Counted from the stretch's first letter, positions 45,493 through 64,000 are shown. The stretch is DNA of 64,000 nt from Pseudomonadota bacterium (GCA_036339375.1 JAYZBC010000025.1:27271-91270); one strand, 5' to 3'. Numbers and translations are program-made. The notes: generated by a model not told the origin, from the letters alone.

Positions 45493-45494
45493 AG

Positions 45495-48591: not shown

Positions 48592-48593
48592 TT

Positions 48594-50735
48594 TTATTTC
48601 ATTTTTGCTCGGGTAACCGAACTTACCACAAAAATTCCTCTCAAAGCCGCCATAATTTCATTTAAATGTTTGTTATCTTTAACTTGAATATCGAGTGACA
48701 TTTCAAAAAAATCAGTCGTCCTATTGTTAATTTTTAAGTTAACGATATTTCCTAAATTATTTGCCACCACTGTTGTCAAGCTCGCTAATCCACCCCTTTG
48801 GTTAGCAAGAACTAATTCTAAACGTCCAACAAATTCTTTCGATTTCGCGGAATTAATATCCCAAGATATATCGACCCACCTTTCAGGCATTTCATGAAAA
48901 CTTTCAAGAGTTTCACAATCATTCGTATGAACTACCACACCCTTTCCTGGGGTTTGTATCCCTATAATTCGATCACCGGGCAAAGGATGACAACAGCTAG
49001 CATAGTGAACAGCCATTCCTGGAATTAATCCGTGAATGGGAATCGATTTTTTATAATTCGCTATTTTTTTTCTTTCAATAATACTTCCACCCTTTTTAGA
49101 CGGTTTTTCTCCTTTAACAATCATGTCAACTACGATTGATGCCATAAGATTTCCCTGACCAATTGACAAATATAATTCTTCTACCTCTTTCATCCCCAAT
49201 TTTTCTAAAATAGTTTTCAAGACGGTTTTTGATATGCCATAGCCCCTATCGGAGAAAGCTTTTCCAAGCATCGCTTCCCCTAAACGGAGGTATTCAGAAT
49301 GTTGCTTAGAACGCACAAATCTACGAATACGTGAACGTGCTTTCCCTGTAACGACAAATCCTTCCCATTCCGGCGCTGGAACACCAGGTGTAGATGTTAC
49401 AATTTCAACCTGATCACCATTTTTTAATACCGTCCTAAGGGGAACTAAACGACCGTTGATTTTAGCACCCACACAAGAATCTCCTACTTCAGAATGGACC
49501 TCATAAGCAAAATCAACGGTAGTGGCCCCTCTTGGTAGTGCAATCAAATCACCTTTTGGTGTAAAGCAGAAGACTTGTTCTTGGAACAAATCTAAACGCG
49601 TATGCTCAATTACTTCATCTGGATCAGCTGTATGTTCAAGAATATCTAAAAGTTCATGGACCCATCGATATTCAACAGTTTCTTCTTCTCGGTTTTCTTC
49701 TTTGTACTGCCAATGGGCTGCTACACCAAACTCCGCAACCTGATGCATGTTGTGGGTACGAATTTGTATTTCGGTACGCCTTTGTTTTGGCCCTATTATT
49801 ACTGTATGGATAGATCGATAACCATTTCTTTTGGGAGTGGAAATATAATCCTTGAAACGACCGGGAACACATGGATAATTTCCATGAATTATTCCTAACG
49901 CCTGATAACATTCTTTAATTTCCGCTACAACAATTCTAAATGCCATTATATCTGAGAGTTGGGCGAACTCCACATTCCTGCTTTGCATTTTTCGCCAAAT
50001 TGAATAAGGCTGCTTTTCACGACCAGATAAATCTATTTTTAAACCTTCTGTTCCCAATTTTTCACGAAGTTCTTTTAAAATCGCCCCGATAATCTCTTCT
50101 TCCACTGCTTCTGATTTTAAAAACTCTAATCTTGTGACGATTGTTGTTTTTGCATCGGGATAAAGTTCAGAAAATGCTAAATCTTCTAACTCGTCTTTTA
50201 TACGCTGCATGCCAATTCGTTCAGCTAATGGTGCAAAAATTTCCAAAGTTTCTCGAGCTATTTTAGTACGTCTTTCAGGAGATGGAATGAATTCCAAAGT
50301 ACGCATATTATGGAGCCTATCCGCTAATTTCACCAGTAATACCCGGATGTCTCGAGAGGTGGCTAGCAAAAGTTTTCGAAAATTTTCGATTTGATGTTTA
50401 CCAGCTGACTTTTGCTCAAGTTTTGAAAGTTTTGTTACACCATCAACAAGTCGAGCAACAGAGGGGCCAAACAAACCCTTAATTTCTTCAATTGTTGCTA
50501 TTGTATCTTCAACGGTATCATGGAGAAGGCCAGTCACGATTGTATCAGAATCCATTTTGAGTTCGGTCAAAATTCCTGCAACTTCTAATGGATGAGAAAA
50601 ATAAGGATCGCCCGACTCTCTTATTTGCGATCCGTGTGCCATCATAGAAAAAACATAGGCGCGATTTAACGCATCTTCATTGGCACCGTTTTCATATGAT
50701 TTTACACGATCAACGAGTTCAAATTGGCGAATCAT
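48594..50735 (-). CDS. spoT: Bifunctional (p)ppGpp synthetase/hydrolase (RelA/SpoT homolog, Rsh)
   Basis: 713 aa with an HD hydrolase domain, synthetase domain, and TGS and ACT regions. Confidence 0.9.
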   Translation of the reverse strand: MIRQFELVDRVKSYENGANEDALNRAYVFSMMAHGSQIRESGDPYFSHPLEVAGILTELKMDSDTIVTGLLHDTVEDTIATIEEIKGLFGPSVARLVDGVTKLSKLEQKSAGKHQIENFRKLLLATSRDIRVLLVKLADRLHNMRTLEFIPSPERRTKIARETLEIFAPLAERIGMQRIKDELEDLAFSELYPDAKTTIVTRLEFLKSEAVEEEIIGAILKELREKLGTEGLKIDLSGREKQPYSIWRKMQSRNVEFAQLSDIMAFRIVVAEIKECYQALGIIHGNYPCVPGRFKDYISTPKRNGYRSIHTVIIGPKQRRTEIQIRTHNMHQVAEFGVAAHWQYKEENREEETVEYRWVHELLDILEHTADPDEVIEHTRLDLFQEQVFCFTPKGDLIALPRGATTVDFAYEVHSEVGDSCVGAKINGRLVPLRTVLKNGDQVEIVTSTPGVPAPEWEGFVVTGKARSRIRRFVRSKQHSEYLRLGEAMLGKAFSDRGYGISKTVLKTILEKLGMKEVEELYLSIGQGNLMASIVVDMIVKGEKPSKKGGSIIERKKIANYKKSIPIHGLIPGMAVHYASCCHPLPGDRIIGIQTPGKGVVVHTNDCETLESFHEMPERWVDISWDINSAKSKEFVGRLELVLANQRGGLASLTTVVANNLGNIVNLKINNRTTDFFEMSLDIQVKDNKHLNEIMAALRGIFVVSSVTRAKMK

Positions 50736-50836
50736 AATACGCTCAACCGCACATTTGTTGGTGGGTTACCGTAGCAATGAACTTACTCTAAAAAATTTGA
50801 TCAATCCGTATATTAAAGACTTACATATGACCAAAT

Positions 50837-51235
50837 TTATTTGTCCTTACTTTTAGGTTTGTCTAAAACCGAACCGGTTTGGTTTTCTATCGCAGCTTGT
50901 TTGATGCTTTCTGCAATCATCGCAGCTTCCGCATCTGCGGCCTCGGCAAATTCTTCTTCCATGGCTAAGAGTTCCTCCGCCTCTTCTTCGGGATCATCTG
51001 TATCGCCATGTCTTTGCAAACCGTGGATAAGCTCTTCTTCTAATTCTGTTAAAGAAATTGTTTCTTCGGCGATTTCACGAAGTGCAACAACAGGATTTTT
51101 ATCGTTGTCACGGTCTAACGTAATTTCCTCTCCTTTGCCAACAGAAAGCTCACGAGCGCGTTGTGAGGCTAACATAACAAGGCGGAAACGATTACGAATT
51201 TTGTCAACGCAATCTTCAACAGTAACGCGGGCCAT
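50837..51235 (-). CDS. rpoZ: DNA-directed RNA polymerase subunit omega
   Basis: 132 aa with the RpoZ N-terminal signature ([30 protein letters not shown]) and an acidic C-terminal tail. Confidence 0.85.
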
Positions 51236-51378
51236 GCGTACAACTCCTCATTGATTTATAAACATTACAAAATTTAAGCAACAATTGCGCCGCAATATAT
51301 GAGAAATTTCTGGTCAAATGCAAGTATTTAGGGGTACAAAGCTATAAAATATTATCATTATTTATATTGGTTTTTACC

Positions 51379-51915
51379 TTAGAACTTCCAACATTTTTGG
51401 TCAGAGGACAAATCATTTATTAAACGGTTGATTGAGCGATGCTTCGTTGGATGAATCCATTCGGGTTCAAGATCACGCAAAGGAAAAAGAACAAATGCAC
51501 GTAAATGCATTCGCGCATGAGGTAGGACTAATTTAGTACCTTTATTTACGTTAAAGACACATTGGTGGTAAATAAGCAAATCGAGGTCCAAACTTCTGGG
51601 TGCATTTGGGCCTGTTCTTACACGCTCAAACTGTTTTTCTATTTCTTGCAACCTTGAAAGAAGAATTATTGGTGTTAATTCTGTTTTAACTTCTGCTACA
51701 GCATTAAAAAAGTTGGGTTGGCTAGATATAGGTAATGGGGTGCTTTGATACCATGGCGAACAACGGATAACATCACAAACACTCTCATTAATAGCAACAA
51801 TTGCCGCTTTAAGGGAACGCAAGGGTGACCCAAACTTTTTGGTTGGCAAATTTCCACCAATTCCTATTAAAATCATTTGCGTCAAATACTCTTTTAAATC
51901 AAATAATGTTCTCAT
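51379..51915 (-). CDS. folK: 2-amino-4-hydroxy-6-hydroxymethyldihydropteridine pyrophosphokinase (HPPK)
   Basis: 178 aa with HPPK motifs (IGIGGNL..., LDLDLLIY). Confidence 0.8.
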   Translation of the reverse strand: MRTLFDLKEYLTQMILIGIGGNLPTKKFGSPLRSLKAAIVAINESVCDVIRCSPWYQSTPLPISSQPNFFNAVAEVKTELTPIILLSRLQEIEKQFERVRTGPNAPRSLDLDLLIYHQCVFNVNKGTKLVLPHARMHLRAFVLFPLRDLEPEWIHPTKHRSINRLINDLSSDQKCWKF

Positions 51916-52022
51916 CTAGTGAATATATCTTCACTTTCCTTACCAAACCCCAATGTGTCTATATTTTGTTCGCTTCAGCAAGTATTATTTCAAAAGTTGT
52001 TTACCATCCGGAGAATAGAATT

Positions 52023-52649
52023 TTGCAGCCAAGTCCAAATTGCCCTTTATGCCCTCGACTCCTTCAGTATCGTTTAAAAAATAGATCCTCATTTCCCCAA
52101 TGGCATAATGCCCCGGTTAAACCTTTTGGAGGATTGGATTCCCAACTATTGATTGTTGGTTTGGCTCCCGGATTGAAAGGAGCAAACCAAACGGGAAGAC
52201 CTTTCACCGGGGATTATGCAGGTGATCTTTTATATAAAACGCTCATGGAATTTGGATTTGCTGAAGGAGAATATCAGAAACATGCAGAAGATAATTTATT
52301 TCTAAAGGATTGTCGAATTACAAACGGTGTTCGTTGTGCCCCCCCTAAAAACAAACCCACCGGAACCGAGATAAAAAGTTGTGCAAAGTTTTTGGAGGCT
52401 GAAATTAAAGGGATGAAAAATTTGATTTGTATATTGGCCTTAGGAGGAATTGCTCATACTACAGTTTTGGCTGTGTTAAACCAAAAAAGAGCCAAGTGGC
52501 CATTTAAACATGCGGCAATACACCATTTGCCAAACCTTCCAATTCTCGTAGATAGCTATCATTGCTCAAGATATAATACTAATACCGGAAGGCTCACCAA
52601 TGTTATGTTTAACGAAGTTTTCTTAAAAATAAAAAAACTACTTTATTAA
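52023..52649 (+). CDS. Uracil-DNA glycosylase, family 4 (Fe-S type)
   Basis: The C-terminal 208 aa of ORF 51825..52649 carry the UDG family 4 signature (...GLAPGLKGANQTGRPFTGDYAG...). The in-frame region upstream of about 52023 overlaps folK and has no good start. A TTG at about 52023 with a GGAGAA SD 8 nt upstream is proposed, but the start is uncertain. Confidence 0.55.
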   Translation: MQPSPNCPLCPRLLQYRLKNRSSFPQWHNAPVKPFGGLDSQLLIVGLAPGLKGANQTGRPFTGDYAGDLLYKTLMEFGFAEGEYQKHAEDNLFLKDCRITNGVRCAPPKNKPTGTEIKSCAKFLEAEIKGMKNLICILALGGIAHTTVLAVLNQKRAKWPFKHAAIHHLPNLPILVDSYHCSRYNTNTGRLTNVMFNEVFLKIKKLLY

Positions 52650-54337: not shown

Positions 54338-55345
54338 ATGGACACTGAAAGAAGTAAAAATAAGATCGACTTACCTTCTTTCACCGATATATCTATGGCG
54401 GCCCAGAGACTGGTTGGCATTATTCACTGCACTCCTCTTTTTGAATCATTAAAAATTAACAAAAAGTTGGGAGCCAAAATTTTTTTTAAAATGGAATCAA
54501 AACAACGGACAGGGTCTTTTAAAATCCGTGGTGCTTACAACAGAATAAGCCAAATCCCAATAGAAACCCGCTCACGAAACATCGTTGCTTTTTCTTCAGG
54601 AAATCATGCACAGGCTGTTGCAGCAGTGGCAAAAATGCTTGATTTTAAGGCAACAATAGTAATGCCCGAAGATGCACCAGAAATTAAAATTTCTGCAACA
54701 AGGAAGTATGGTGCAAACATAATCTTCTACAATAGACTGACAAAAAATCGTGAAAACATTGCACGTTCCCTTATCGCCAAAAATGGTGGAACGTTAGTAC
54801 CACCATTTGATCACCCTTTGGTAATTGCCGGACAAGGAACAGTAGGATTGGAAATATCAAAGCAACTGGAAAAGTTAAATTCAGTACCTGATGTGTTCCT
54901 TGTGCCATGCAGCGGCGGGGGACTAGTGTCTGGAATTGCAATTGCAATAAAACAAAAATTTAAAAAAGCCAAAATTTTTTCGGTTGAACCGTCAGGTTAT
55001 GACGATACCGCGCGGTCGTTAAAATCAGGTAACAGAGTAGTGTTATCCCAATTTAAACCATCAATTTGTGATGCATTGTTGGTGCCAACTCCCGGAAAAC
55101 TAACATTTCAAATTAACCAACGGCTTTTGTCTGGAGGTTTGGTGGTTACTGATTCCATGGTTGAGAATGCCATGAGGTTTGCTCATAATTTTCTTGGACA
55201 AAAAATAGAACCCAGTGGGTGTGCCGCATTAGCAGCATTGCTAGAAAATATTGACAAATTTAGAAACAAAATTGTGGTAGTTATCTTATCCGGTAAAAAC
55301 GTAGACCCTCATTTCTTTAATAAAATCCTGAACGAAAAAATTTAA
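54338..55345 (+). CDS. PLP-dependent threonine/serine dehydratase-like enzyme (no ACT regulatory domain)
   Basis: 335 aa with a fold-type II PLP enzyme lysine motif (...SKQRTGSFKIRGAYN...) and a glycine-rich loop (CSGGGL). Confidence 0.7.
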   Translation: MDTERSKNKIDLPSFTDISMAAQRLVGIIHCTPLFESLKINKKLGAKIFFKMESKQRTGSFKIRGAYNRISQIPIETRSRNIVAFSSGNHAQAVAAVAKMLDFKATIVMPEDAPEIKISATRKYGANIIFYNRLTKNRENIARSLIAKNGGTLVPPFDHPLVIAGQGTVGLEISKQLEKLNSVPDVFLVPCSGGGLVSGIAIAIKQKFKKAKIFSVEPSGYDDTARSLKSGNRVVLSQFKPSICDALLVPTPGKLTFQINQRLLSGGLVVTDSMVENAMRFAHNFLGQKIEPSGCAALAALLENIDKFRNKIVVVILSGKNVDPHFFNKILNEKI

Positions 55346-55414
55346 GAAGTACAATATTTGCGAAACAATCTTATTGGTTTTATAAATTATAAAAATATAA
55401 ATTTGCAATCAAAC

Positions 55415-56935
55415 CTAAATTTTAAGTTCCAAAAGTGCGTTTTCCTTAACCTCCCTACGCAATACCTTTCCAACACTACTACGGGGCAAATCATTGAGTG
55501 TTTTTATGTTTTTTGGAGATTTTATTGAACCAATAACTTGTTTGGAAAATCCAAGCATTTCGGACTCGTTAGCTTTGACACCTTTTTCTAAAACTACTGC
55601 GGCCTGAACAACTTCACCCCATTTTTCATCAGGTAAACCATACACGACACACTCATAAATCGCTGGGTGTTTAACAAGTGCAGCTTCAACATCACTTGGA
55701 TAAACATTAAACCCTCCGGAAATTATTACATCCCGTAATCTATCTTTAATAAAAAGATAACCCCTGTCATCTAAAAGGCCTACATCGCCTGTACGCAGCC
55801 AGTTTCCGGTTTTTACTGCTGATGTAGCGTCAGGCATATCCAGGTACTCACTCATCAAAAGATCACCGCTAACTACAATTTCTCCTGTATTTCCCTCCGG
55901 CAATTCTTCATCACTATTTGGCTCCATAATTGTTACCCTTGTAAGAAAACTTGAAGGACCCACTGATTCTACATTCTTCTCTTTCAGCATTTCATTTGGA
56001 GAAAGATAAGTCACTATTTGGGGTGCCTCGGTTTGCCCATAATTTGTAGCTAAAACAGGACCAAAAACCCCCTGTGCCGCACGAATTTTTTCAGAAGGCA
56101 TTGGAGCCCCACCATAAATAAGCCTTGAAAGCATGGGGAATTTCTGTTCTTCGCCTCCAATCTCTGACATCATCATGTAAATAACGGTTGGTGGAATAAA
56201 ACTCGTTGTAATATCCCTATTTTTGAAAGCATCCAGAATATCCGGTGGCCTCATAATCCTTTTACCAAGGACAAGGGTGCCCCCGACACCCAAAATTGGT
56301 GTAACATAACAAGAGGTACCGTGAGTAAGAGGAGAACAAACAAGGTAGCGGTCTCCACCACATAATTCCAATTCATTGATCATACAAGCGGCTCCCGTTA
56401 ACCAGGAACGATAAGGTTGCAATACTCCCTTCGGCCTACCACTCGAACCACCGGTAAATTTGATTGCTTGAATATTTTCACCATTAAAGTTATTAATATT
56501 TGGCCGCTTACCGCGATTTTTTTCTATCAATCCTCCGATTGTATCCAAGGCGGTTGACATTCCACTAAACCCAACAATTTTTTCCCCTTTAAATAAACCC
56601 ACTTGGCCTTCACAATCTTCATCAAAAATCAAGATTGAAGGTTTTGCCGCTTCAATTTTTAATTGGATGTCATTTTTCCCATCGCGTGGGTTTAAGGGTA
56701 CCCAAACTTTTCCTGCTGCCATGACAGCCAACAAACCAATTAAATGCTCCAAAGAATTATATCCACAAATCGCCACACGCGATTGCGGTCTTTCATCGAG
56801 CCCGTGTATGGCCGCAGCAAGGGAATTAACCCGTTCTACCAATGAGGCGTAAGTGATAACTTCAGTTTCAGTCTCAACGGCTACAGCGTTCGGCGCCCGC
56901 CGGCAGGAAGCATACAAAAAATCTATTGGAAACAT
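55415..56935 (-). CDS. AMP-dependent synthetase/ligase (acyl-CoA ligase, second copy)
   Basis: 506 aa with the adenylation motif FTGGSSGRPKGV. Confidence 0.8.
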   Translation of the reverse strand: MFPIDFLYASCRRAPNAVAVETETEVITYASLVERVNSLAAAIHGLDERPQSRVAICGYNSLEHLIGLLAVMAAGKVWVPLNPRDGKNDIQLKIEAAKPSILIFDEDCEGQVGLFKGEKIVGFSGMSTALDTIGGLIEKNRGKRPNINNFNGENIQAIKFTGGSSGRPKGVLQPYRSWLTGAACMINELELCGGDRYLVCSPLTHGTSCYVTPILGVGGTLVLGKRIMRPPDILDAFKNRDITTSFIPPTVIYMMMSEIGGEEQKFPMLSRLIYGGAPMPSEKIRAAQGVFGPVLATNYGQTEAPQIVTYLSPNEMLKEKNVESVGPSSFLTRVTIMEPNSDEELPEGNTGEIVVSGDLLMSEYLDMPDATSAVKTGNWLRTGDVGLLDDRGYLFIKDRLRDVIISGGFNVYPSDVEAALVKHPAIYECVVYGLPDEKWGEVVQAAVVLEKGVKANESEMLGFSKQVIGSIKSPKNIKTLNDLPRSSVGKVLRREVKENALLELKI

Positions 56936-56944
56936 AAAATTATT

Positions 56945-57382
56945 TCACTCTAGAAAAATTTTTATTGAAATCACCTGTCCATCTCGAATTCCTAAAGTAT
57001 CCCTTATGGGCAATACGGAAATCAATTCAATTTGGTCAGGAGGGTAGTCTTTTATCTGTGGCAAAATTATAGCTGCTTCAATTCTTTCCTCAATTGTAGA
57101 AAGAAAACAGCGGGCATCACACCAATCTGAGCGATGTGGCTGCAATAAAATTCCCGGTAAATTTCTGATCCAAGACCATTTTTTCTTTGATATTTCATCT
57201 GTTACAAGGGCATTTAAAGTCCCGGGGAAAGGGTCAATTCCAAGGTTTTTATGAAACGCTTTTCGTGCCCAATCTAACTGTGTAAACTCAGACCCTTTAC
57301 CTAACCCTGTAACAATTTTTCCGAGTACTGATTCTGTTCTCATTTTTCTATCAATATTTTTGTCCAACTTAACATTGCACAA
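56945..57382 (-). CDS. DUF120 / archaeal-type CTP-dependent riboflavin kinase-like protein
   Basis: 145 aa. GKIVTGLGKGSEF and GIDPFPGTLNALV match the Gly-rich and PxxGTLN motifs of MJ0056-type riboflavin kinase. 9 nt upstream of the acyl-CoA ligase on the same strand. Confidence 0.55.
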   Translation of the reverse strand: MCNVKLDKNIDRKMRTESVLGKIVTGLGKGSEFTQLDWARKAFHKNLGIDPFPGTLNALVTDEISKKKWSWIRNLPGILLQPHRSDWCDARCFLSTIEERIEAAIILPQIKDYPPDQIELISVLPIRDTLGIRDGQVISIKIFLE

Positions 57383-57431: not shown

Positions 57432-57506
57432 GCGGGTGTAGCTCAGTGGTAGAGCACGAGCTTCCCAAGCTCGGTGTCGAGGGTTCAATTCCCTTCACCC
57501 GCTCCA
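57432..57506 (+). tRNA. tRNA-Gly (anticodon CCC)
   Basis: Cloverleaf folds by hand: 7-bp acceptor stem GCGGGTG/CACCCGC, D-arm GCTC...GAGC, anticodon stem CGAGC/GCTCG with loop TTCCCAA, T-arm GAGGG-TTCAATT-CCCTT, and an encoded CCA. Confidence 0.85.
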
Positions 57507-57538
57507 GTTTCGAAGTGCTGTGATAATTGTATCATAAA

Positions 57539-58765
57539 TCAAATGATGGACTGCCCCTTGAGTTCATTGATTTCTTCTTCTTGTAACTCAAGAACTTCCT
57601 CCAAAACCTCTTCCGTATGTGCACCCAAAATTGGGGGAGAGTGTCGATATGTTACCGGTGTTGCAGAGAAATTTAGGGGACTACCGACTAGTGAAACATT
57701 TTGTCCATCCACAGCATCGTGAGGCATTTGTATTATCATGCCACGTTCCTGCACATGTTTATCATTAAAAACCTGTTCTATTGAATTAATAGGACCACAA
57801 CCAATGGTTAATTTTTGGAGCGCAGTCAGCCATTCTTTTGAGGTTTTTGAAGCCATAACAGGCTGCATAGCCATAATCAGCGTATCTCTATTCTTAACTC
57901 GAGCACTATTGCTTTTATAAAGCTCATCATTTGCGAGTTCTTCACAATTCGCAAACTCACAAAACCGTTGAAATTGTGGATCATTGCCAATTGTCAGCAT
58001 AATATGACTATCCTTAGTCGCAAAAACTTGGTAGGGAACAATATTAGGATGTCCGTTGCCAAGGCGGGGTGGATTTGACCCACTAGTAAGGTAATTCATT
58101 GCCTGTATAGAAAGCCAAGCTGCTTGAGTATCTAACATTCCAATATCGATATATTGACCCTGACCGTCGCACTCTCGTGACCGTAGGGCAGCACAAATTG
58201 CCACAGTTGCATACATGCCTGCCATAATATCGGCTATTGGGACACCGGTTTTCATGGGATCACCTTGGGGCTCACCCGTGACACTCATAATCCCGCCCAT
58301 GGCCTGAATAAGCGGATCGTACCCCGCTCTTTCAGCGTATGGCCCGTTTTGACCAAACCCTGTGATTGAACAATAAATAAGCCTTGGACATTCATTTTTT
58401 AAAGTTTCATAACCTAGGCCATACCGAACAAGGTTACCGACTTTAAAATTTTCTACTAATACGTCTGCCTTTTTTGCTATGCGACGAACTAAATCCTGAC
58501 CCTCTTTTTTGGAAATATCGATAGAAACAGACCTTTTGTTACGATTGGCACCCAAAAAATAAGCACTCTCTAAGGTATCCTCCCCTTCTTTATTTTGTAA
58601 AAAGGGCGGTCCAAATCGCCGAGTGTCATCACCATTGTTCGGACGTTCTATTTTGATAATATTCGCCCCTAAATCCCCTAAAATTTGTGTACAAAAAGGT
58701 CCCGCTAAAATTCGGGTTAGATCAAGAACAGTGATCCCATCAAGAGCTCCACTATTTTTTTTCAT
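57539..58765 (-). CDS. Family III CoA-transferase (CaiB/BaiF), paralog of 6035..7267
   Basis: 408 aa, roughly 55-65% identical by eye to the first CoA-transferase (e.g. LIYCSITGFGQ(N/T)GP...AGYD.LIQAMGG(I/L)MSVTGEP). Confidence 0.8.
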   Translation of the reverse strand: MKKNSGALDGITVLDLTRILAGPFCTQILGDLGANIIKIERPNNGDDTRRFGPPFLQNKEGEDTLESAYFLGANRNKRSVSIDISKKEGQDLVRRIAKKADVLVENFKVGNLVRYGLGYETLKNECPRLIYCSITGFGQNGPYAERAGYDPLIQAMGGIMSVTGEPQGDPMKTGVPIADIMAGMYATVAICAALRSRECDGQGQYIDIGMLDTQAAWLSIQAMNYLTSGSNPPRLGNGHPNIVPYQVFATKDSHIMLTIGNDPQFQRFCEFANCEELANDELYKSNSARVKNRDTLIMAMQPVMASKTSKEWLTALQKLTIGCGPINSIEQVFNDKHVQERGMIIQMPHDAVDGQNVSLVGSPLNFSATPVTYRHSPPILGAHTEEVLEEVLELQEEEINELKGQSII

Positions 58766-58887: not shown

Positions 58888-59361
58888 ATGATTGACAGGA
58901 TAGAAAAAAAAATCAATCAAATGGGGTACACTTTGCCGAAGCCATTTGTTTACCCCAGTCCTAATAGGACAGGGTGCCTCAAAACGGGTAATTTGTTGTT
59001 TGTTTCAGGACACCCTCCGCCGATGGATTTCGGAGTGGCCGTGTTCGGCAAAGTTGGGGCAACAATTACTGAAGAAGAAGCCGTAATTTCCGCTCGTGCA
59101 ACCGGTCTAAATATGCTTGCATCAATTAAACAGCAACTCGGTGACCTTCAGAAGATCAACAGGATAGTTAAATTAAATGGTATGGTAAATTCTGCACCCG
59201 GTTTTCAACGTCAGTTTGCCGTCATTGATGGTGCTTCTAATTTATTTTATGAATTACTCGGACCAAGACATGGACAGCATGCAAGGAGCGCTGTTGGAAT
59301 GTTCGAATTGCCCAGAGGATTTTGTATGGAAATTGAAGGTATTTTTGAAATAAAGGTTTAA
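58888..59361 (+). CDS. RidA/YjgF/L-PSP family protein
   Basis: About 157 aa from ATG 58888 (MIDRIEKK...) with the YjgF-like fold pattern. ATGA overlap with the convergent end of the FAH gene. Confidence 0.6.
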   Translation: MIDRIEKKINQMGYTLPKPFVYPSPNRTGCLKTGNLLFVSGHPPPMDFGVAVFGKVGATITEEEAVISARATGLNMLASIKQQLGDLQKINRIVKLNGMVNSAPGFQRQFAVIDGASNLFYELLGPRHGQHARSAVGMFELPRGFCMEIEGIFEIKV

Positions 59362-60206
59362 CCTGGGTAAGATATTATTTTATGTTTTTGTTGGCCGAGA
59401 CCATCAATTCCCATATCAATAACATCATTTGGTTGCAACCATTTTGGTGGTTTAAATCCAACAGCCACTCCGTGCGGAGAACCGGTTGTTAACACGTCAC
59501 CAGGATTAAGCGACATAAACTCACTCACATATGCTACTAATTCGGCCATTCCAAAAACCATGTCAGAGGTATTGCCGTCTTGGCGAATTTCGTCGTTCAC
59601 CTTCGTCCAGATACGCTTTTTTTGTGGATTGCCAAATTCATCTGCTGTCACTAACCAGGGGCCAAGAGGACCGAAAGTGTTAGCACTCTTGCCCTTTGTT
59701 GTGCCGCCCGCTCTTTCTCGCTGAAAGGCCCGCTCGGAAACATCATTCATTATGCAGTATCCCGCTATATAGTTGAGACCCTCAGCAGCACTCACATTAA
59801 TAGCGGTCCGCCCAATTATCGCAGCAAGTTCCACTTCGTAATCTAAATTTGTTGAAGTCTTTGGTTTGATTATTGGATCAAATGGACCAACTACCGAACT
59901 AATCGCTTTTAAAAATAATACAGGCTCTTCAGGCCGAGTGTATCCCATTTCTAAAATATGGTTCATGTAATTCTGTCCAACAGCAACGATTTTTGGAATA
60001 CCCGATATTGGAACACCAAGACGAGGTTCACCTTTTACTTCGGGAAGCGTATGAAAATTTAAATTTTGCAGTTGAGCAAGATTATCAGGAGCAAGTGTAT
60101 CCCCTGTAATATCTGAAATTTTTCCGGATAAATCACGAAGCAAACCGGATCGGTCTATCAACCCAGGTTTTTCTTCCCCTATATTGCCAAATCTTACAAG
60201 TTTCAT
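59358..60206 (-). CDS. Fumarylacetoacetate hydrolase (FAH) family protein (hydratase, decarboxylase or hydrolase)
   Basis: 282 aa single FAH domain with metal-binding acidic residues. Confidence 0.7.
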   Translation of the reverse strand: MKLVRFGNIGEEKPGLIDRSGLLRDLSGKISDITGDTLAPDNLAQLQNLNFHTLPEVKGEPRLGVPISGIPKIVAVGQNYMNHILEMGYTRPEEPVLFLKAISSVVGPFDPIIKPKTSTNLDYEVELAAIIGRTAINVSAAEGLNYIAGYCIMNDVSERAFQRERAGGTTKGKSANTFGPLGPWLVTADEFGNPQKKRIWTKVNDEIRQDGNTSDMVFGMAELVAYVSEFMSLNPGDVLTTGSPHGVAVGFKPPKWLQPNDVIDMGIDGLGQQKHKIISYPG

Positions 60207-60271: not shown

Positions 60272-62425
60272 ATGGCAAAGGAAAAAAATGTTGTTCCCAC
60301 TACCTGTTGGGAGTGTAGCACTCATTGTGGCGCCTTAATGTCCGTAAAGGACGGTAGAGTTACAAAAATAGTGCCTAACAACAAACATCCAAGTTCACTA
60401 GGAGCATTTTGTGTCAAAGGTTTCCGTGGTTTACCGGAACTTACCTATCACCCTAAAAGGATATTGTCCCCCATGAAACGAATGGGGGGTCGTGGCGAGG
60501 GAAAATGGGAAAACATTACCTGGGACGAAGCGTTAAATATTTTTTATCAAAAAATGTTTTCCGTTATAGACAAATTCGGCCCAGTTTCAGTCTGTGGTGC
60601 TGTTAGCAACGCCCATTTTAGCCGTGGGGTTTCTTTAGCTCTTTTGATGAGAGCCTTTGGATCGCCAAACTGGATGATAAATCAAGACCTATGCGGTGGT
60701 TGCCGTGCGGTTTCGGATAAATTAACAGGGCTCAATATTTCGAATGGTGAGGATATAGAAAATACCAATTGCGCATTAATCGTTGGACGTAACCCTTCGG
60801 CTGCAGACCCCGTACAATGGCTCTCATTAAAGAGAGCAAAAAGTCGTGGGGCAAAAATAATCACTATAGACCCGGCAAAGACCCCTGCTGCTTTGATGGC
60901 TGATATTTGGCTCCGTCCTAAAATTGGCACGGATGCAGCAATAGGTCTCGCCCTGACTAATTGGCTGATAAAAAACAAACAATATGACAAAGACTTCGTT
61001 AATCATTTCTGCCATGGATTTGATAAACTTGCTGAAAGGGCAGAGAAATTTACACCTGATTTCGCTTCAAAGATAAGTGGCGTCAATGCAAAAGACATCG
61101 TTAAAGCTGCTGAATACTACGCAAACGGACCGTCCTGTTTTGTAAGTGGACATGGGATAGATGCTTTTAGTGCCGGCGTCCAAACATACCGCACTTTTCA
61201 TGCTCTAGTCGCCATAAGTGGTAATTTGGATCGTAAGGGCGGTAATCGTCGGGTAAAAAGACCCCCGGGTTTCACAAATTATATAGAAGTGCTGCACAAA
61301 CAAGAGTTTCGCCTGCCTCATAAAATAGAAAAACAAACCATTGGAGCTGAGAAGTTTCCCTTATGGGCTGGCCCTGAAGGGTGGCAAACCGCCTGCCATA
61401 ATCCCTCAGTTATCAATGCCATCCTTACCGGCAAACCCTACCCCATTCGTGCCCTTTATGTAACCGGTGTCAACATAGTGGTTACCTATCCTAACACAAA
61501 AAAAACGATTGAAGCGCTTAAATCCCTCGACTTTCTTTGTGTAGCGACCCATATGATGACGCCGACTGCAGAATTTGCAGACCTAATTTTGCCAAAAACG
61601 ACTGGCCTAGAAGATGAAGAAATTTCTCTGGAAGCAAGTGGCCCCTGTTTGAGTGTCATTCAACCAGCTCACCCACCACTTGGTGAGGCTCGAAGTGATT
61701 TTATGATAGCTCAGAATTTGGTCCACCTAATGGAAAAGGGAAGAAATCCCCATGCCCGTCGTTATTTTCCTTGGAAAACTAAAAGCGATTTCAATAAATT
61801 CCTTTTAGGAGATGGACCAATAAACATTAAACAACTCAAACGAGATGGTTATGCACAGTACGAATATAAATTAGAAAATTTTCGTGAAGAAGGATTCAAA
61901 ACCAAGACCGGGAAAATAGAGTTATTTTCTGAAAAACTAGCAACACTTGGATTGGATCCCCTTCCTAACTACGTACCCATACCCCCCACCGAGCGAAAAA
62001 CAAAGACTAATTTTCCATATACACTCCTCACGGGAGCGAGGGAGAAAACCTACCATCACTCACGTTTTCGAGATCAAAACTGGGCTAGAAAAGTGTCGCC
62101 TGACCCCTGGTTACAACTTCACCCTGAAACGGCAACTAAAATTGGAGTTAAAACTGACGATTGGGTCAAAGTGGAAACGCCTAAAGGACAGCATTCTTGT
62201 TACCTAAAAGTGAAAGTTACAGACACCACTATGCCTGATTTAGCACGGACTGGTATGGGCTGGTGGTATCCAGAGAGTAAAGGCCCAGAACATGGGGCTC
62301 TAGACATTAATATCAACGTAGCACTCAGCTATGACGGGCCATGGGATCCAGCAACCGGTTCATCAGATATTCGCGGATTACCTTGCCGAATTACTCGGAC
62401 TAACAACATGGTTGTAAATAGATAA
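60272..62425 (+). CDS. Molybdopterin (bis-MGD) oxidoreductase family protein, stand-alone cytoplasmic MopB
   Basis: 717 aa. N-terminal Cys12-x2-Cys15-x3-Cys19...Cys47 4Fe-4S motif, WENITWDEAL MopB signature, and a C-terminal MopB_CT region. No Tat signal and no adjacent Fe-S or heme subunit. Confidence 0.75.
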   Translation: MAKEKNVVPTTCWECSTHCGALMSVKDGRVTKIVPNNKHPSSLGAFCVKGFRGLPELTYHPKRILSPMKRMGGRGEGKWENITWDEALNIFYQKMFSVIDKFGPVSVCGAVSNAHFSRGVSLALLMRAFGSPNWMINQDLCGGCRAVSDKLTGLNISNGEDIENTNCALIVGRNPSAADPVQWLSLKRAKSRGAKIITIDPAKTPAALMADIWLRPKIGTDAAIGLALTNWLIKNKQYDKDFVNHFCHGFDKLAERAEKFTPDFASKISGVNAKDIVKAAEYYANGPSCFVSGHGIDAFSAGVQTYRTFHALVAISGNLDRKGGNRRVKRPPGFTNYIEVLHKQEFRLPHKIEKQTIGAEKFPLWAGPEGWQTACHNPSVINAILTGKPYPIRALYVTGVNIVVTYPNTKKTIEALKSLDFLCVATHMMTPTAEFADLILPKTTGLEDEEISLEASGPCLSVIQPAHPPLGEARSDFMIAQNLVHLMEKGRNPHARRYFPWKTKSDFNKFLLGDGPINIKQLKRDGYAQYEYKLENFREEGFKTKTGKIELFSEKLATLGLDPLPNYVPIPPTERKTKTNFPYTLLTGAREKTYHHSRFRDQNWARKVSPDPWLQLHPETATKIGVKTDDWVKVETPKGQHSCYLKVKVTDTTMPDLARTGMGWWYPESKGPEHGALDININVALSYDGPWDPATGSSDIRGLPCRITRTNNMVVNR

Positions 62426-62508: not shown

Positions 62509-63309
62509 ATGGCCCAAAGACGTTCAAAAAAAGATCCTGTTTTGACCGCAGCAAGAAGGTTGCGTTCTGCTTTAAATAGCGGGCGTCCCTGCAAACCTAT
62601 TCGAGACTTAGTAAAAAAGGGTGATTTGGATTCCGCTTATTCTATACAGCAGGCAAATACTGATTACTGGATTAAAGAGGGCCGTCGCCCGGTTGGTCGC
62701 AAAATTGGATTGACCGCAAAAACTGTCCAAAAACAGCTCGGAGTGAATCAACCAGATTACGGTATTCTTTTTGCTGACATGGAAATTGTAGATGGGGATG
62801 AAATCTCATCGGCTCTCCTCATGCAGCCAAAGGTAGAAGGAGAAATAGCTTTGGTGCTGGACGATGATCTAGTTGATGAACAAATTACTCTGGTCGACTT
62901 GGTGAACTCAGTGGCTTATTGCCTCCCAGCAATCGAAATTGTTGGAAGCCGTATATCCAATTGGGACATTACAATTGTTGATACAATTGCTGATAACGCT
63001 TCTTCGGGTTTGTACGTCCTAGGTACAAAACCAGTTGGCCTGCATGAGATTGACCTCAGAATGTGCGGTATGGTTATGGAAAATCGGGGGAAGCAAGTTT
63101 CCATTGGGGCAGGCGTGGCATGTTTAGGTAACCCACTTAATGCTGCCCTTTGGTTAGCCCGTAAAATGGTTGCTGTCGGCATGCCGCTTATGGCCGGGGA
63201 TACAATCATTACAGGGGCTTTGGGGCCCATGGCACCTGTAACTCCTGGAGATGTAATCGAAGTCCGCATTTCGGGGTTAGGGTCTGTTCGGTCTGTATTT
63301 GCTAAATAA
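62509..63309 (+). CDS. mhpD: 2-keto-4-pentenoate (2-oxopent-4-enoate) hydratase
   Basis: 266 aa MhpD/BphH/HpaH-family hydratase, immediately followed by the acylating acetaldehyde dehydrogenase gene. Confidence 0.7.
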   Translation: MAQRRSKKDPVLTAARRLRSALNSGRPCKPIRDLVKKGDLDSAYSIQQANTDYWIKEGRRPVGRKIGLTAKTVQKQLGVNQPDYGILFADMEIVDGDEISSALLMQPKVEGEIALVLDDDLVDEQITLVDLVNSVAYCLPAIEIVGSRISNWDITIVDTIADNASSGLYVLGTKPVGLHEIDLRMCGMVMENRGKQVSIGAGVACLGNPLNAALWLARKMVAVGMPLMAGDTIITGALGPMAPVTPGDVIEVRISGLGSVRSVFAK

Positions 63310-63321: not shown

Positions 63322-64000
63322 GTGAAAACAAAAGTGGCTATCATTGGTTCAGGAAATATTGGTACCGATTTGATGGTGAAAATTTTGAATGGTTCCAAGG
63401 ACTTGGAAATGAGTTGTTTGGTGGGGATAGATCCAGAATCCGACGGTTTAAATAAAGCTAGAAAAATGGGTGTAGCAACGACCGATAGAGGTATAAATGG
63501 ATTGGTAGAAATGGACGAATTTCAAAAAATTGAAATTCTATTCGATGCTACCTCCGCTAAAGCCCATGCTCAACATGATCAGGTTGCACGAATACATGGA
63601 AAGCAAATTATTGATATGACCCCGGCTGCCATTGGCCCGTATGTTGTACCAGTCGTAAATATTGACCAACACCTAAACTCGCCAAATATCAATATGGTAT
63701 CTTGTGGAGGACAGGCTACCATACCCATGGTAAACGCAGTCCAAAAGGTTTCAAAGGTTCATTATGCAGAGATTGTTGCTTCAATAGCCAGTCAATCAGC
63801 GGGACCAGGAACAAGGGCAAATATCGACGAATTCACCAAAACTACCGCAACCGGCCTTGAAGTTGTTGGGGGTGCAAAAAGGGGGAAGGCAATCATTGTA
63901 TTAAACCCTGCAGAACCTCCTATGATGATGCGTAATACAGTTTACACGCTAAGCGAAAACACAGACACTGAGGTAATTATTGAATCTGTTAAAAAACAGG
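63322..64000 (+). CDS. mhpF: Acetaldehyde dehydrogenase (acetylating), N-terminal part, truncated by the window end
   Basis: GTG start with an [30 protein letters not shown]... NAD-binding N-terminus and the catalytic Cys region (MVSCGGQAT), typical of MhpF/DmpF/BphJ. Confidence 0.8.

Follow-up and report, generated by a model that had tools for sequence, protein, structure and literature searches.

The gene at positions 60272..62425 of the 64,000-nucleotide stretch of DNA analysed here (the window) encoded a predicted Mo/W-bisPGD enzyme of the MopB type, which belongs to an uncharacterised clade of acetylene-hydratase-like proteins with a reaction that is probably new, and whose gene is a constant part of one catabolic supercluster of marine Alphaproteobacteria. 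Tentatively, it can be regarded as a ferredoxin-linked oxidoreductase of aromatic catabolism. Few types of MopB reaction are known outside respiration and C1/N assimilation, chiefly those of acetylene hydratase (AH) and of anaerobic transhydroxylases and hydroxylases. The family described here, which is large and well conserved, keeps the cofactor scaffold of AH, has a changed pocket and in marine Alphaproteobacteria is firmly linked to the terminal part of aromatic-ring breakdown; the identity of its substrate would give a new molybdoenzyme reaction and a missing step in the degradation of aromatic or N-aromatic acids by abundant marine heterotrophs.

The gene and its cofactor-binding positions were located as follows.

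60272..62425, plus strand: gene for the MopB (Mo/W-bisPGD) catalytic protein (open reading frame, three Pfam domains, Foldseek, tree)
60290..60430, plus strand: N-terminal [4Fe-4S] domain with Cys12, Cys15, Cys19, Cys47 and the bridging Lys49 (PF04879, alignment to AH 2e7z)
60692..60694, plus strand: codon of Cys141, the predicted Mo/W-ligating residue (aligned with the W-ligand Cys141 of AH)

Translation of the plus strand gave a reading frame of 717 aa starting with ATG, in which three Pfam domains scored far above their cutoffs, namely Molybdop_Fe4S4 (PF04879, residues 7-53, 45.5 bits), Molybdopterin (PF00384, residues 63-484, 163.7 bits) and Molydop_binding (PF01568, residues 586-696, 64.1 bits). 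The C12-x2-C15-x3-C19...C47 motif and Lys49 were invariant in the alignment of about 117-119 homologues. Cys141 was present in 119/119 sequences of the family alignment and was listed as invariant together with Glu14, His294, Asp297 and a Y594-H-H-S-R598 motif, Ser16 being listed too. The metal ligand, for which the initial annotation had named Cys, Sec, Ser and Asp as candidates, was predicted to be Cys from the alignment of Cys141 with AH. No twin-arginine (Tat) motif was read in the translated N-terminus (MAKEKNVVPTTCWEC), and as the first FeS cysteine is residue 12, no room is left for a signal peptide; judged from its sequence, the protein is cytoplasmic. An AF2 model (pLDDT 90) predicted the four-domain MopB fold and matched more than 180 MopB structures in Foldseek. 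The core, the dinucleotide-binding domain and the FS0 motif were all found, so that by sequence and model the protein is a member of the MopB / DMSO-reductase superfamily. The gene is real, and its product is predicted to be a catalytic protein with Mo/W-bisPGD, a Cys ligand and one [4Fe-4S] cluster. Translation, Pfam and NCBIfam returned the reading frame, the length, the cysteine motif, the MopB core, the lack of a Tat signal and the flanking FAH and MhpD genes just as first annotated.

No curated NCBIfam model reached its own cutoff on this protein. AH was the closest solved relative by sequence (2E7Z, best match in the PDB search, 2e-82), by family profile (387 bits, followed by PsrA/PhsA with 283 bits, and 225 bits for FdhH) and by fold (top rank in Foldseek, TM 0.88, versus TM 0.83 for PsrA/PhsA), which bears out the AH-type size and architecture proposed earlier. 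In a tree built from a numpy distance calculation, with no NasA sequence among its taxa, the family was monophyletic (100% bootstrap) and grouped with AH at only 69% support, while FdhH and NapA grouped with each other (93%), apart from the clade of AH, Psr and the query. Pyrogallol transhydroxylase / resorcinol hydroxylase matched with only 45-85 bits over ~110 residues (TM 0.71, rank 38) and arsenite oxidase AioA with E = 4e-5 (25 bits, PDB sequence search). Among the clades against which placement had been proposed, the query thus fell with AH-like proteins and away from FdhH (as also from NapA), AioA and the transhydroxylase being only distant matches. Structural features agreed with this: the transhydroxylase and hydroxylase (RhL/PgtL) have a large subunit of ~875 aa and a small FeS beta subunit, whereas no beta-subunit gene lay near the query, and AioA has a 3Fe-4S cluster, no protein Mo ligand and the Rieske partner AioB, whereas the motif of the query contains four Cys and its predicted metal ligand is a further Cys. 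PsrA/PhsA share with the query a Cys-ligated Mo and an N-terminal [4Fe-4S] cluster, but are Tat-exported and act with the four-cluster PsrB/PhsB and a membrane anchor, none of which the query has; no PsrB/PhsB- or PsrC/PhsC-like gene occurred among the recurrent neighbours of the MopB loci when a genuine phsABC operon was compared. The detected homologues numbered more than 1,500, one cluster at 50% identity alone taking in Alphaproteobacteria, Binatia and others, and more than 150 clusters (50% identity) of unstudied proteins scored at least as high as AH. Literature searches found no characterised family member; all that they turned up was a general phylogeny of MopB proteins (PMC10100899) and a three-subunit Mo hydratase/alcohol dehydrogenase unrelated to the family.

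Like AH of Pelobacter/Syntrophotalea acetylenica, the query is a single-subunit, cytoplasmic MopB protein (AH has ~720 aa) with a four-Cys [4Fe-4S] motif, a bridging Lys and a Cys metal ligand. The two share only ~27-31% identity, the query gene sits in an aromatic-catabolic operon, and the AH host is an acetylene fermenter whereas the hosts of the query family here are aerobic marine heterotrophs. Active sites were compared by aligning the query to AH 2e7z and 117 homologues. At the position of the catalytic Asp13 of AH the query had Ser16, and the family had Ser in 111/119 sequences, Asn in 3, Gly in 2, Thr in 1 and gaps in 2, never Asp. The residues of the acetylene-binding ring of AH, which the rebuilt AH sequence carries at exactly those numbers, are Ile14, Ile113, Ile142, Trp179, Trp293 and Trp472; they corresponded to Thr17, Phe116, Gly142, Pro180, Ser292 and Ala455, respectively, none of the six being conserved with AH, and position 455 was Pro or Ala across the family. 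The alignment and the model thus show a predicted pocket different from that of AH and more polar, with fold and cofactor scaffold as in AH. An identity as acetylene hydratase (EC 4.2.1.112) was rejected on the change of Asp13 to Ser and the complete replacement of the hydrophobic ring, though the Cys ligand is kept; the AH-type non-redox hydration raised in the initial annotation found no support in a family from which the catalytic Asp and the entire acetylene pocket are missing.

The genes on either side of the MopB gene were the following.

57539..58765, minus strand: family III CoA-transferase, succinate:dicarboxylate (SUGCT-like), 408 aa (Pfam, 443 bits; PDB 9br7, 4ed9)
58888..59361, plus strand: Rid-family (YjgF) protein, Rid1-like (Pfam PF14588/PF01042; PDB matches PA0814, ACIAD3089)
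59358..60206, minus strand: FAH-family hydrolase, 282 aa (Pfam; NCBIfam 350 bits, cutoff 500; PDB 8gsr, 1.7e-79)
62509..63309, plus strand: MhpD-like 2-keto-4-pentenoate hydratase, 266 aa (NCBIfam)
63322..64000, plus strand: acetylating acetaldehyde dehydrogenase (MhpF/DmpF type), 5' part (translation; runs off the window end)

The FAH gene was divergent from the MopB gene with a 65-bp spacer, and its product was closest to L-2,4-diketo-3-deoxyrhamnonate hydrolase; by this match it is likely an acylpyruvate / 2,4-diketo-acid C-C hydrolase. The Rid gene probably starts at 58888, encoding 157 aa, since an identical contig has a 157-aa gene call, while the mechanical reading frame starts at 58828; the Rid1 proteins PA0814 and ACIAD3089 have been shown to be deaminases (PMC5619798). 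The CoA-transferase scored 483 bits on the NCBIfam model SucGlutTfsCaiB (cutoff 750). The MhpD-like gene, which followed the MopB gene in the same orientation after 83 bp, encoded a protein scoring 322.6 bits on PRK11342, just under the cutoff of 350, and 249 bits on dmpE (NCBIfam). The window ended 1.6 kb past the MopB gene, inside the mhpF-type gene, and contigs with an identical and a 99%-identical MopB protein both ended directly after the MhpD-like gene. A promoter/terminator scan of 57-64 kb gave counts not above shuffled expectation, the Rfam scan found a tRNA only and no Moco riboswitch, and no Moco-biosynthesis genes were present within the window.

In related loci, genes for the CoA-transferase, Rid1-type deaminase, FAH hydrolase, MopB, MhpD, MhpF, MhpE and a DmpH-like decarboxylase recurred together in two arrangements, A and B. 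Unsupervised clustering of neighbours was polluted by antisense/alternative-frame ORFs in high-GC loci (clusters 1-5, 13, 18 and others); these were removed by an overlap filter, and only families with Pfam or NCBIfam confirmation were kept. The CoA-transferase was found in both arrangements, at 25/84 MopB loci, and the FAH gene adjoined MopB in arrangement A loci. Rid was adjacent to MopB in arrangement A and in some distant loci, and its reading frame overlapped the MopB gene end in arrangement B; both were missing from locus L115, which kept the ferredoxin and ferredoxin reductase genes (Fd/FdR). MhpE and the decarboxylase, encoded beyond the window, were seen in orthologous loci, MhpE scoring 566 against a cutoff of 286 and the DmpH-like decarboxylase 236 bits, below its cutoff of 350.6; the MhpF orthologue in locus L040 scored 469 bits against the TIGR03215 cutoff of 282. 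The B-type arrangement added a genuine 2-hydroxymuconic-semialdehyde dehydrogenase (823 versus a cutoff of 693) and an AndA-like three-component Rieske dioxygenase. The usual upstream neighbour of the MopB gene was a TauE, DASS, TctC or MFS transporter gene, with one to three TauE/SafE-family permease genes directly upstream on the same strand in B-type operons. In an MhpD-centred metagenome sample, independent of the MopB-based locus sample, MopB was present in 11/11 marine contigs with MhpD orthologues of at least 66% identity and at least 8 kb visible upstream, and in 0/15 loci with MhpD below 66% identity. The catabolic setting to which the initial annotation had given weight is thus not accidental, being kept across two gene arrangements and in an independent sample.

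The composition around MopB, with Rid, decarboxylase, hydratase, aldolase and acetaldehyde dehydrogenase, is the same as that of the amn 2-aminomuconate route (PMC3790839). The clusters resemble amnD/J-E-F-G-H and the dmp/xyl lower pathways in the Rid/YjgF deaminase, 4-oxalocrotonate-decarboxylase-like protein, hydratase, aldolase and acetylating acetaldehyde dehydrogenase, and the B-type loci alone also in the semialdehyde dehydrogenase of lower meta pathways. They differ in that neither a ring-cleavage dioxygenase (AmnAB, C23O or HAAO) nor a 4-oxalocrotonate tautomerase was seen, while MopB, the CoA-transferase and the FAH hydrolase have no place in the textbook amn/dmp/xyl pathways. Neither an amidohydrolase for ring opening nor an extradiol dioxygenase was encoded in the cassette.

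Within the window, no PsrB/PhsB-type FeS subunit or membrane anchor adjoined the MopB gene. The same operon closed in relatives, past the point where the window stops, with genes for two Rieske ferredoxins and for a ferredoxin reductase (Fd-Fd-FdR); in arrangement A this ending came without a Rieske oxygenase within 10 kb, and in B-type marine clusters Fd/FdR lay beside AndA-like oxygenase alpha/beta genes and a PdxA/TphB-like dehydrogenase, their conventional partners. Given the AndA-like oxygenase beside Fd/FdR in B-type clusters and the presence of Fd/FdR without MopB in L115, the system in the marine lineage may serve the AndA-like dioxygenase instead of MopB, and Fd-Fd-FdR as the dedicated marine partner of MopB was downgraded. 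Other relatives had candidate partners directly beside MopB. In the sister clade, comprising Rhizobium sp. CB3090 and Caballeronia sp. SBC1 (43-46% identity, 100% bootstrap), a 4Fe-4S-type ferredoxin and an FprA-like FAD/NAD(P) protein were encoded directly beside MopB, with MoaA adjacent in Rhizobium; the Thioclava locus had the order MopB-4Fe4S-FAD-Glp, and in Mycobacterium the MopB gene directly followed a ferredoxin reductase gene. The Rhizobium and Caballeronia enzymes have the length, FeS motif and Cys ligand of the query family and are likewise cytoplasmic, but carry Tyr or Phe at the AH Asp13 position; their genes adjoin a transporter gene and an aldehyde dehydrogenase gene, and unlike the query loci these have no Rid, CoA-transferase or Mhp genes. 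The description of the enzyme as stand-alone, with no partner electron-transfer subunit, therefore holds within the window and not beyond it, ferredoxin/flavoprotein reductase genes lying beside MopB in the sister clade, Thioclava and Mycobacterium, and Fd/FdR genes in the marine operons past the window end.

Assimilatory nitrate reductases of the cytoplasm take their electrons from either an NADH diaphorase or a Rieske-type ferredoxin, as in Paracoccus NasC/NasG/NasB. The query would resemble NasC/NasA only in the way it works, as a soluble MopB protein with one [4Fe-4S] cluster receiving electrons from a small ferredoxin and a flavoprotein; by score it is not a member of that family, and no nitrite reductase or nitrate transporter genes lie nearby.

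Taken together, these data tentatively suggest an oxidoreductase of aromatic catabolism that is linked to ferredoxin and acts at an early stage, its substrate being an imported carboxylate which probably contains nitrogen. A soluble ferredoxin and a flavoprotein linked to NAD(P)H would be the redox partners of MopB, electrons passing through the [4Fe-4S] cluster and Lys49, and MopB would most likely be a water-dependent hydroxylase or dehydrogenase. The transporter gene that usually lies upstream of it would point to an early step and to an organic anion taken up from outside. The substrate would probably be a nitrogen-bearing (hetero)aromatic or unsaturated carboxylate, and the product, or its ring-opened product, an imine/enamine of the 2-aminomuconate type, which the adjacent Rid could hydrolyse to a 2-oxo acid and ammonia; from its carbon, pyruvate and acetyl-CoA would then be formed by way of the decarboxylase, MhpD, MhpE and MhpF. 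As no family member has been characterised, every functional step is drawn from gene context, and since AH, too, has this FeS/Lys scaffold although its catalysis involves no redox turnover, the scaffold is no proof of redox chemistry.

A rival reading, the leading idea of the initial annotation, is a non-redox hydratase in which reduced Mo/W would, as in AH, activate water for addition to an unsaturated or alkynyl acid at a C-C multiple bond; the resulting enol, aldehyde or keto acid would enter the MhpD/MhpE/MhpF route, and any ferredoxin and reductase would only keep the metal reduced in an aerobic cell. The closeness to AH by sequence, profile, fold and tree (69%), the absence of an adjacent electron-transfer subunit from the window and the genome-derived arrangement B, and the constant presence of aldehyde-handling enzymes (MhpF here; ALDH in Rhizobium, Caballeronia and B-type loci) are consistent with hydration. 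It is nonetheless unlikely, as the AH-essential Asp13 is Ser in most of the family and 0/6 ring residues are retained, ferredoxin/flavoprotein genes recur beside four independent relatives, and the conserved Rid deaminase partner has no role in a simple hydration.

The hydroxylase acting on an aromatic or unsaturated intermediate that had been raised alongside hydration is a live reading. In its boldest form, which we consider rather improbable, the family would be a new oxygen-independent molybdenum hydroxylase on the AH scaffold, water hydroxylating a nitrogen-bearing (hetero)aromatic carboxylate; picolinate, for example, would be hydroxylated at C6 to the lactam of 2-aminomuconate, followed by ring opening, deamination of the enamine by Rid and passage of the carbon to the 4-oxalocrotonate route. 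In arrangement A, an AndA-like dioxygenase could have been lost and its remaining Fd-Fd-FdR chain recruited by MopB. If true, an oxygenase step would be bypassed in aerobic marine bacteria, by a reaction class new to the MopB fold and in a clade of this size (>1,500 detected homologues). A role in homarine (N-methylpicolinate) catabolism was considered separately and rejected, the published homABCDER operon for homarine being flavin-based and without a molybdoenzyme (PMC13236597).

Electrons could also run the other way, from NAD(P)H through flavoprotein, ferredoxin and [4Fe-4S] to Mo, in an NAD(P)H-dependent reductase that would take an oxygen atom off an organic N-oxide or S-oxide or off a nitro, oxime or hydroxylamine group, or reductively dehydroxylate a CoA thioester, with Rid hydrolysing the imine. 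AndAa/HcaD- and FprA-type ferredoxin reductases normally run reductively, an imine product would suit the Rid partnership, the CoA-transferase was counted as a constant neighbour, and the cytoplasmic assimilatory nitrate reductases offer a precedent in architecture. Similarity to S-/N-oxide reductases was, however, not above background (BisC 168 and TorA ~100 bits in NCBIfam, cutoffs >900), no neighbour suggested a candidate oxidised substrate, and the assignment of Fd/FdR is itself uncertain in the marine lineage, which leaves such a reductase with a low probability.

MopB might instead be a cytoplasmic sulfur-oxyanion enzyme, such as a sulfite dehydrogenase in soluble form or a reductase of the thiosulfate/polysulfide type. 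Its task would be to detoxify the sulfite set free as sulfonated aromatic acids are broken down by the dioxygenase and meta pathway encoded nearby. PsrA/PhsA are the second-closest relatives, the family of the TauE/SafE permeases encoded upstream in B-type operons is named for sulfite export, and the clusters hold an aromatic-acid dioxygenase and a lower meta pathway. This is very unlikely, since TauE was absent from the window and from every arrangement A locus and TauE-family permeases are generic anion transporters; moreover, a Tat signal and a partner of the PsrB/C or SoeB/C type were both missing, the PhsA model NF012032 gave 290 bits against a cutoff of 694 (a comparison without SoeA), and the tight links to Rid and CoA-transferase would be left unexplained.

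An ordinary assimilatory nitrate reductase or formate dehydrogenase subunit lying by chance in a catabolic island, for which similar size and domain order and weak NCBIfam matches might speak, is effectively refuted by scores far under the cutoffs (Fdh-alpha TIGR01591 287 versus 666 bits, NasC 192 versus 1100, haloarchaeal NasA_Halo 101 versus 1000), by the tree position apart from FdhH/NapA, by the absence of nir, nas, fdh and hyc genes from the window and ~150 related loci, and by the conserved aromatic-catabolic context; the initial annotation had likewise set the enzyme apart from nitrate and formate genes, and the gene at the window edge was an acetaldehyde dehydrogenase gene, not nirBD or fdh.

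Contexts differed among the other clades of the family, with Amidohydro_2-rich loci in Binatia and, in Xanthobacteraceae and Acetobacteraceae, TctC or hydantoinase genes nearby, and the substrate may accordingly differ between clades. A group with 56-59% identity in cultured Belnapia, Paeniroseomonas and Bradyrhizobium had heterogeneous, uninformative contexts. Cultivable bacteria that carry the enzyme or its sister-clade relatives are Belnapia, Paeniroseomonas aquatica CECT 7131, Bradyrhizobium sp. S69, Rhizobium sp. CB3090 and Caballeronia sp. SBC1. At lower coordinates than the CoA-transferase gene, the island held an accessory block and a tRNA gene.

54338-55345, plus strand: PLP-dependent beta-hydroxyaspartate/threonine-dehydratase-like enzyme (Pfam, NCBIfam)
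55415-56935, minus strand: acyl-CoA ligase (Pfam, NCBIfam)
56945-57382, minus strand: DUF120/CTP-riboflavin-kinase-like protein (Pfam, NCBIfam)
57432..57506, plus strand: tRNA-Gly(CCC), inside the island between the DUF120 and CoA-transferase genes (Rfam, ARAGORN)

At least five loci besides this one had both the cassette and the accessory block (54338..57382), namely L010, L012, L013, L040 (clusters 113-115) and L114.

The molybdopterin enzyme under study (MopB) was encoded by an ORF starting with ATG, and the coordinates and length assigned to it in the initial annotation were confirmed exactly. The gene and its neighbours were as follows.

59358–60206, minus strand, FAH-family hydrolase (FAH), divergent left neighbour of MopB
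60272–62425, plus strand, MopB, 717 aa
62509–63309, plus strand, MhpD-like protein, right neighbour of MopB
63322 onward, running past the window end, acetylating acetaldehyde dehydrogenase of the MhpF/DmpF type, open frame, orthologue above the curated cutoff

Pfam searches assigned to MopB the three canonical modules of the superfamily, Molybdop_Fe4S4 (residues 7–53), Molybdopterin (63–484), and Molydop_binding (586–696), with the cysteine motif C12-x2-C15-x3-C19...C47. The N-terminus, MAKEKNVVPTTCWEC, was too short ahead of this motif for a Tat or Sec signal; thus, the enzyme is cytoplasmic.

No curated NCBIfam model reached its cutoff, the best scores being those of PhsA (290 bits; cutoff 694), Fdh-alpha (287; 666), and NasC (192; 1100). 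Among solved structures, the top match over the full length was acetylene hydratase (AH, PDB 2E7Z; E = 2e-82), followed by PsrA (6e-65) and FdhF types. With a family profile of 46 members the lead of AH became wider than with the single sequence (AH 387 bits, PsrA 283, FdhF 250, FdhH 225, NapA 173, and pyrogallol transhydroxylase 85), and fold comparison of a confident AlphaFold2 model (pLDDT 90, pTM 0.91) repeated the sequence order (AH, TM 0.88; PsrA, TM 0.83). The initial comparison with the AH-type architecture was therefore sound. In a neighbour-joining tree (698 columns, 200 bootstraps) constructed without NasA, AioA, and PgtL and with AH and PsrA sequences rebuilt from HMMER alignments, the 19 sampled family members were monophyletic (100%) and had as sister the uncharacterised enzymes of Rhizobium sp. 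CB3090 and Caballeronia sp. SBC1 (100%). Support at deeper nodes was modest, this group joining the AH pair at 69% and next Psr/Phs at 62%, and FdhH and NapA formed a separate pair (93%) outside the AH/Psr/MopB clade. The family comprised more than 1,500 scored homologues with 56% to 73% identity, which collapsed at 50%-identity clustering to essentially one full-length representative. In the same 50%-identity library, more than 150 further clusters of ~700-aa proteins matched or exceeded the AH-level score, which by sequence score points to a broad, almost entirely unstudied AH-like radiation. MopB is a distinct variant, with no assigned function, of a known superfamily, and its gene neighbourhood is conserved and unusually informative.

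The active site was compared by aligning MopB and 117 homologues with an AH sequence rebuilt from its HMMER alignment, which reproduced the literature numbering (Cys9/12/16/46, Asp13, Lys48, Cys141, and the ring Ile14/Ile113/Ile142/Trp179/Trp293/Trp472). Cys12, Cys15, Cys19, Cys47, Lys49, Cys141, and Arg590 were invariant or nearly so in MopB and its homologues; the metal-ligating residue, whose identity had been left for checking, is predicted to be Cys141 from its alignment with AH Cys141. In contrast, the catalytic Asp13 of AH was replaced by Ser16, with Ser present in 111 of 119 sequences and Asp in none, and all six ring residues differed (Thr17, Phe116, Gly142, Pro180, Ser292, and Ala/Pro455). 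Since the ring residues are all replaced, the predicted pocket should be larger and more polar than that of AH. Family-specific invariants near the AH-site positions, including Trp13, Glu14, Asn137-Gln138-Asp139, His294, Asp297, and Tyr594-His-His-Ser-Arg598, are candidates for catalysis. The missing Asp13 and the replaced ring argue against identity with acetylene hydratase itself.

Two gene orders were prominent among the 80 genome loci fetched via MopB, whose neighbours were grouped by clustering. In arrangement A, carried by the window and by marine Rhodospirillaceae/Rhodospirillales MAGs, genes for a CoA-transferase (minus strand), a Rid1-type imine/enamine deaminase (Rid; plus), and FAH (minus) preceded MopB-MhpD-MhpF-MhpE-DmpH-like decarboxylase (plus). 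In arrangement B, an SDR and a CoA-transferase (both minus) preceded TauE-MopB-Rid-MhpD-MhpF-MhpE-decarboxylase (plus), with the Rid frame overlapping the 3′-end of MopB. The association was also seen in an independent sample of marine metagenome contigs chosen by the MhpD-like protein instead of MopB. This sample comprised 56 marine loci with MhpD of at least 66% identity, and MopB was present in 11/11 of those whose visible upstream sequence reached 8 kb or more and in 15/20 of those where it reached 4 kb or more, versus none of 15 loci with a more distant MhpD (<66%). The MopB–MhpD linkage is therefore specific and strong, and the initial emphasis on catabolic gene context was well placed. 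The MopB loci of Binatia/Thermodesulfobacteriota (L015–L043) had another, internally conserved context containing four Amidohydro_2 proteins, an amidase, a luciferase-like enzyme, TauD, a Gly_reductase-B-like protein, an SDR, and TctC. As the MopB sequences of these loci nested in the alphaproteobacterial arrangement-A clade (93% to 99% bootstrap) while their context differed, horizontal transfer and subsequent recruitment to a different pathway are suggested. In the group with 56% to 59% identity (Xanthobacteraceae, Bradyrhizobium, and Belnapia) contexts varied, a TctC-type binding protein often being directly adjacent.

The Rid of the window was nearest to the Rid1 proteins PA0814 and ACIAD3089, which are imine/enamine deaminases by experiment (PMC5619798), and the FAH to L-2,4-diketo-3-deoxyrhamnonate hydrolase, a C–C hydrolase of 2,4-diketo acids. 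The CoA-transferase of the cassette was of the succinate:dicarboxylate type, and the second MhpD paralogue scored highest as a 2-oxo-3-hexenedioate decarboxylase of the DmpH type. In L130, a marine operon of the B type, three TauE genes were followed by MopB, Rid, a dienelactone-hydrolase-family protein, an aldehyde dehydrogenase, MhpD, MhpF, MhpE, and a decarboxylase; with 823 bits, the aldehyde dehydrogenase cleared the equivalog threshold (693) of 2-hydroxymuconic semialdehyde dehydrogenase. The combination of deaminase, decarboxylase, hydratase, aldolase, and acetaldehyde dehydrogenase in the MopB cassette is also that of the amn route, which converts 2-aminomuconate to pyruvate and acetyl-CoA (PMC3790839). 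No ring-cleavage dioxygenase was found in any of these MopB-linked clusters.

The three TauE/SafE-family permease paralogues of L130 (2336–4649) were in tandem directly upstream of MopB on the same strand, and a single copy was present in L004/L005; sulfite export and aromatic anion uptake are possible alternative functions for these permeases. The dienelactone-hydrolase-family (YghX-like) protein recurred just 3′ of MopB or Rid (L130, 7362–8336; L001, 12763–13236) and directly followed MopB in L007, L009, L011, and L051. The L130 copy had an apparent twin-arginine signal (TRRMFVAGAA) and would thus be periplasmic, although its gene sits inside a cytoplasmic catabolic operon.

Possible electron-transfer partners were encoded beside MopB in several relatives. 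The operon of Rhizobium sp. CB3090 (45% to 46% identity) encoded an ALDH, a ferredoxin, an FAD/NAD(P)-binding protein, MopB, and MoaA; that of Caballeronia (43%) an MFS transporter, a 2x[4Fe-4S] ferredoxin, an FprA-like flavoprotein, an ALDH, and MopB; and that of Thioclava (~28%) MopB, a 4Fe-4S protein, an FAD oxidoreductase, and Glp. A MopB of a Mycobacterium plasmid (~34%) directly followed a ferredoxin reductase, with moeA and moaA near; its annotation as 'Acetylene hydratase' is doubtful because His occupies the position of AH Asp13. In this plasmid, pTHAF192_b of Mycobacterium sp. THAF192 (L090, 1092–15123), the MopB operon contained a soluble di-iron monooxygenase (tmoABCDE-like), a ferredoxin reductase, an Abm monooxygenase, an allophanate hydrolase, a RutB-like amidohydrolase, a purine-type permease, moeA, and moaA, and has the appearance of a cluster for the breakdown of N-heterocycles.

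In arrangement A, all six genome loci reaching far enough had two Rieske ferredoxins and an AndAa/HcaD-like reductase (Fd-Fd-FdR) after the decarboxylase, with no Rieske oxygenase within 10 kb, and the reductase was found in 12/12 metagenome loci that showed 9 kb or more of downstream sequence. This position falls just past the end of the present window, so that the 'stand-alone' status initially given to MopB is likely an artefact of the window end, or at least unproven. In marine clusters of the B type, the homologous Fd/FdR genes adjoined conventional partners, namely oxygenase alpha/beta subunits, a PdxA/TphB-like dehydrogenase, and a GntR regulator; the oxygenase subunits had anthranilate dioxygenase AndAc/AndAd as their best-scoring models (464 and 173 bits, neither reaching the cutoff). 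A complete three-component Rieske dioxygenase was located directly downstream of the meta-pathway genes in L119–L134, L150, and L164 (e.g. L119, 13593–18828), its four parts all scoring best, below cutoff, as Burkholderia-type AndAcAdAbAa, with a PdxA-like partner reminiscent of the terephthalate system. L115 (140–5843) kept Fd-Fd-FdR, MhpD-F-E, and the decarboxylase, had neither MopB nor Rid in the ~5 kb of contig upstream of MhpD, and encoded, ahead of the genes for the CoA-transferase and FAH, a flavin hydroxylase of the MhpA type (608 bits; cutoff 546); this locus may represent a natural replacement experiment. A ferredoxin/flavoprotein partnership is thus well supported in the sister clade, whereas the evidence is ambiguous in the marine lineage. 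Because Fd/FdR lies beside an oxygenase in B-type clusters and is kept without MopB in L115, a ferredoxin-linked redox enzyme is put no higher than the most likely identity of MopB.

MopB would act as an early, peripheral enzyme in the catabolism of an imported organic anion, because its usual upstream neighbour is a transporter gene (TauE, DASS/CitMHS, TctC, or MFS), its most persistent partner is the imine/enamine deaminase, and the downstream genes all belong to the 4-oxalocrotonate route. Our tentative preference is for a water-dependent hydroxylase or dehydrogenase in this role; a specific but speculative example is hydroxylation of a picolinate-like acid at C6, which would give the lactam of 2-aminomuconate. 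Redox partners in the sister clade and the missing AH catalytic residues make a hydroxylase or dehydrogenase more likely than a pure hydratase. An AH-like non-redox hydratase, as initially suggested and with which the nearest solved structure agrees, is accordingly disfavoured by the active site and appears unlikely. A reductase driven by NAD(P)H and acting on an N–O or S–O function seems rather improbable, and a sulfite or sulfur-oxyanion enzyme, with which the TauE genes and the Psr/Phs similarity agree, quite improbable. An ordinary nitrate reductase or formate dehydrogenase, which firm clustering with those enzymes and nirBD or fdh genes just outside the window would have indicated, is hardly credible, as the NCBIfam scores fell far under the cutoffs, FdhH and NapA lay outside the clade, and the gene at the window edge was of the MhpF type. 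On present evidence, new chemistry is a candidate reading of MopB and not a demonstrated one, and the enzyme merits experimental follow-up.

Neither molybdenum cofactor biosynthesis genes nor, by Rfam scan, a molybdenum cofactor riboswitch was found within the window. Its 6–30 kb region was a dense catabolic island, and the following features were recorded in and around it.

1067–2932 and 2936–3961, 2-oxoacid:ferredoxin oxidoreductase alpha and beta (POR/PFOR domains)
4064–5398, Pyr_redox_2 flavoprotein, after the oxidoreductase genes
6035–7330, second family-III CoA-transferase
7299–8561, acyl-CoA dehydrogenase
9272–10516, Amidohydro_2 protein
11080–12576, 12598–14094, 14186–15754, and 18527–20092, minus strand, four near-tandem UbiD-family (prenyl-FMN) decarboxylase paralogues
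15947–16864, minus strand, 2OG-Fe(II) oxygenase, among the UbiD paralogues
16896–18440, minus strand, acyl-CoA ligase, among the UbiD paralogues
57432–57506, plus strand, single tRNA-Gly(CCC), between the DUF120 and CoA-transferase genes

Such a density of UbiD genes, four in 9 kb, is unusual and suggests that several (hetero)aromatic acids are decarboxylated; in L002 and L003, both from Binatia, the MopB homologue was likewise flanked by UbiD genes. The island parts at 6035–10516 and 20249–30039 further encoded an ornithine cyclodeaminase-family protein, a DHDPS-family aldolase, two luciferase-like monooxygenases, two cupins, an alpha/beta hydrolase, and an aldo-keto reductase, and the island yielded no ring-cleavage dioxygenase belonging to a recognised family. 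The 2-oxoacid:ferredoxin oxidoreductase could supply or consume reduced ferredoxin; a ferredoxin-dependent enzyme of this kind was not expected in a marine heterotroph that is presumably aerobic. The tRNA-Gly(CCC) gene divided the accessory block from the MopB cassette, and a mechanically called ORF overlapping it (57474–57722) is probably spurious. The same housekeeping block (relA/spoT, pdxJ, lepB, rnc, and era) lay near the cassette both at 43917–52649 of the window (arrangement A) and at 1–4086 of L004 (arrangement B), suggesting that the cassette occupies an old chromosomal location and is not a recent mobile insertion.
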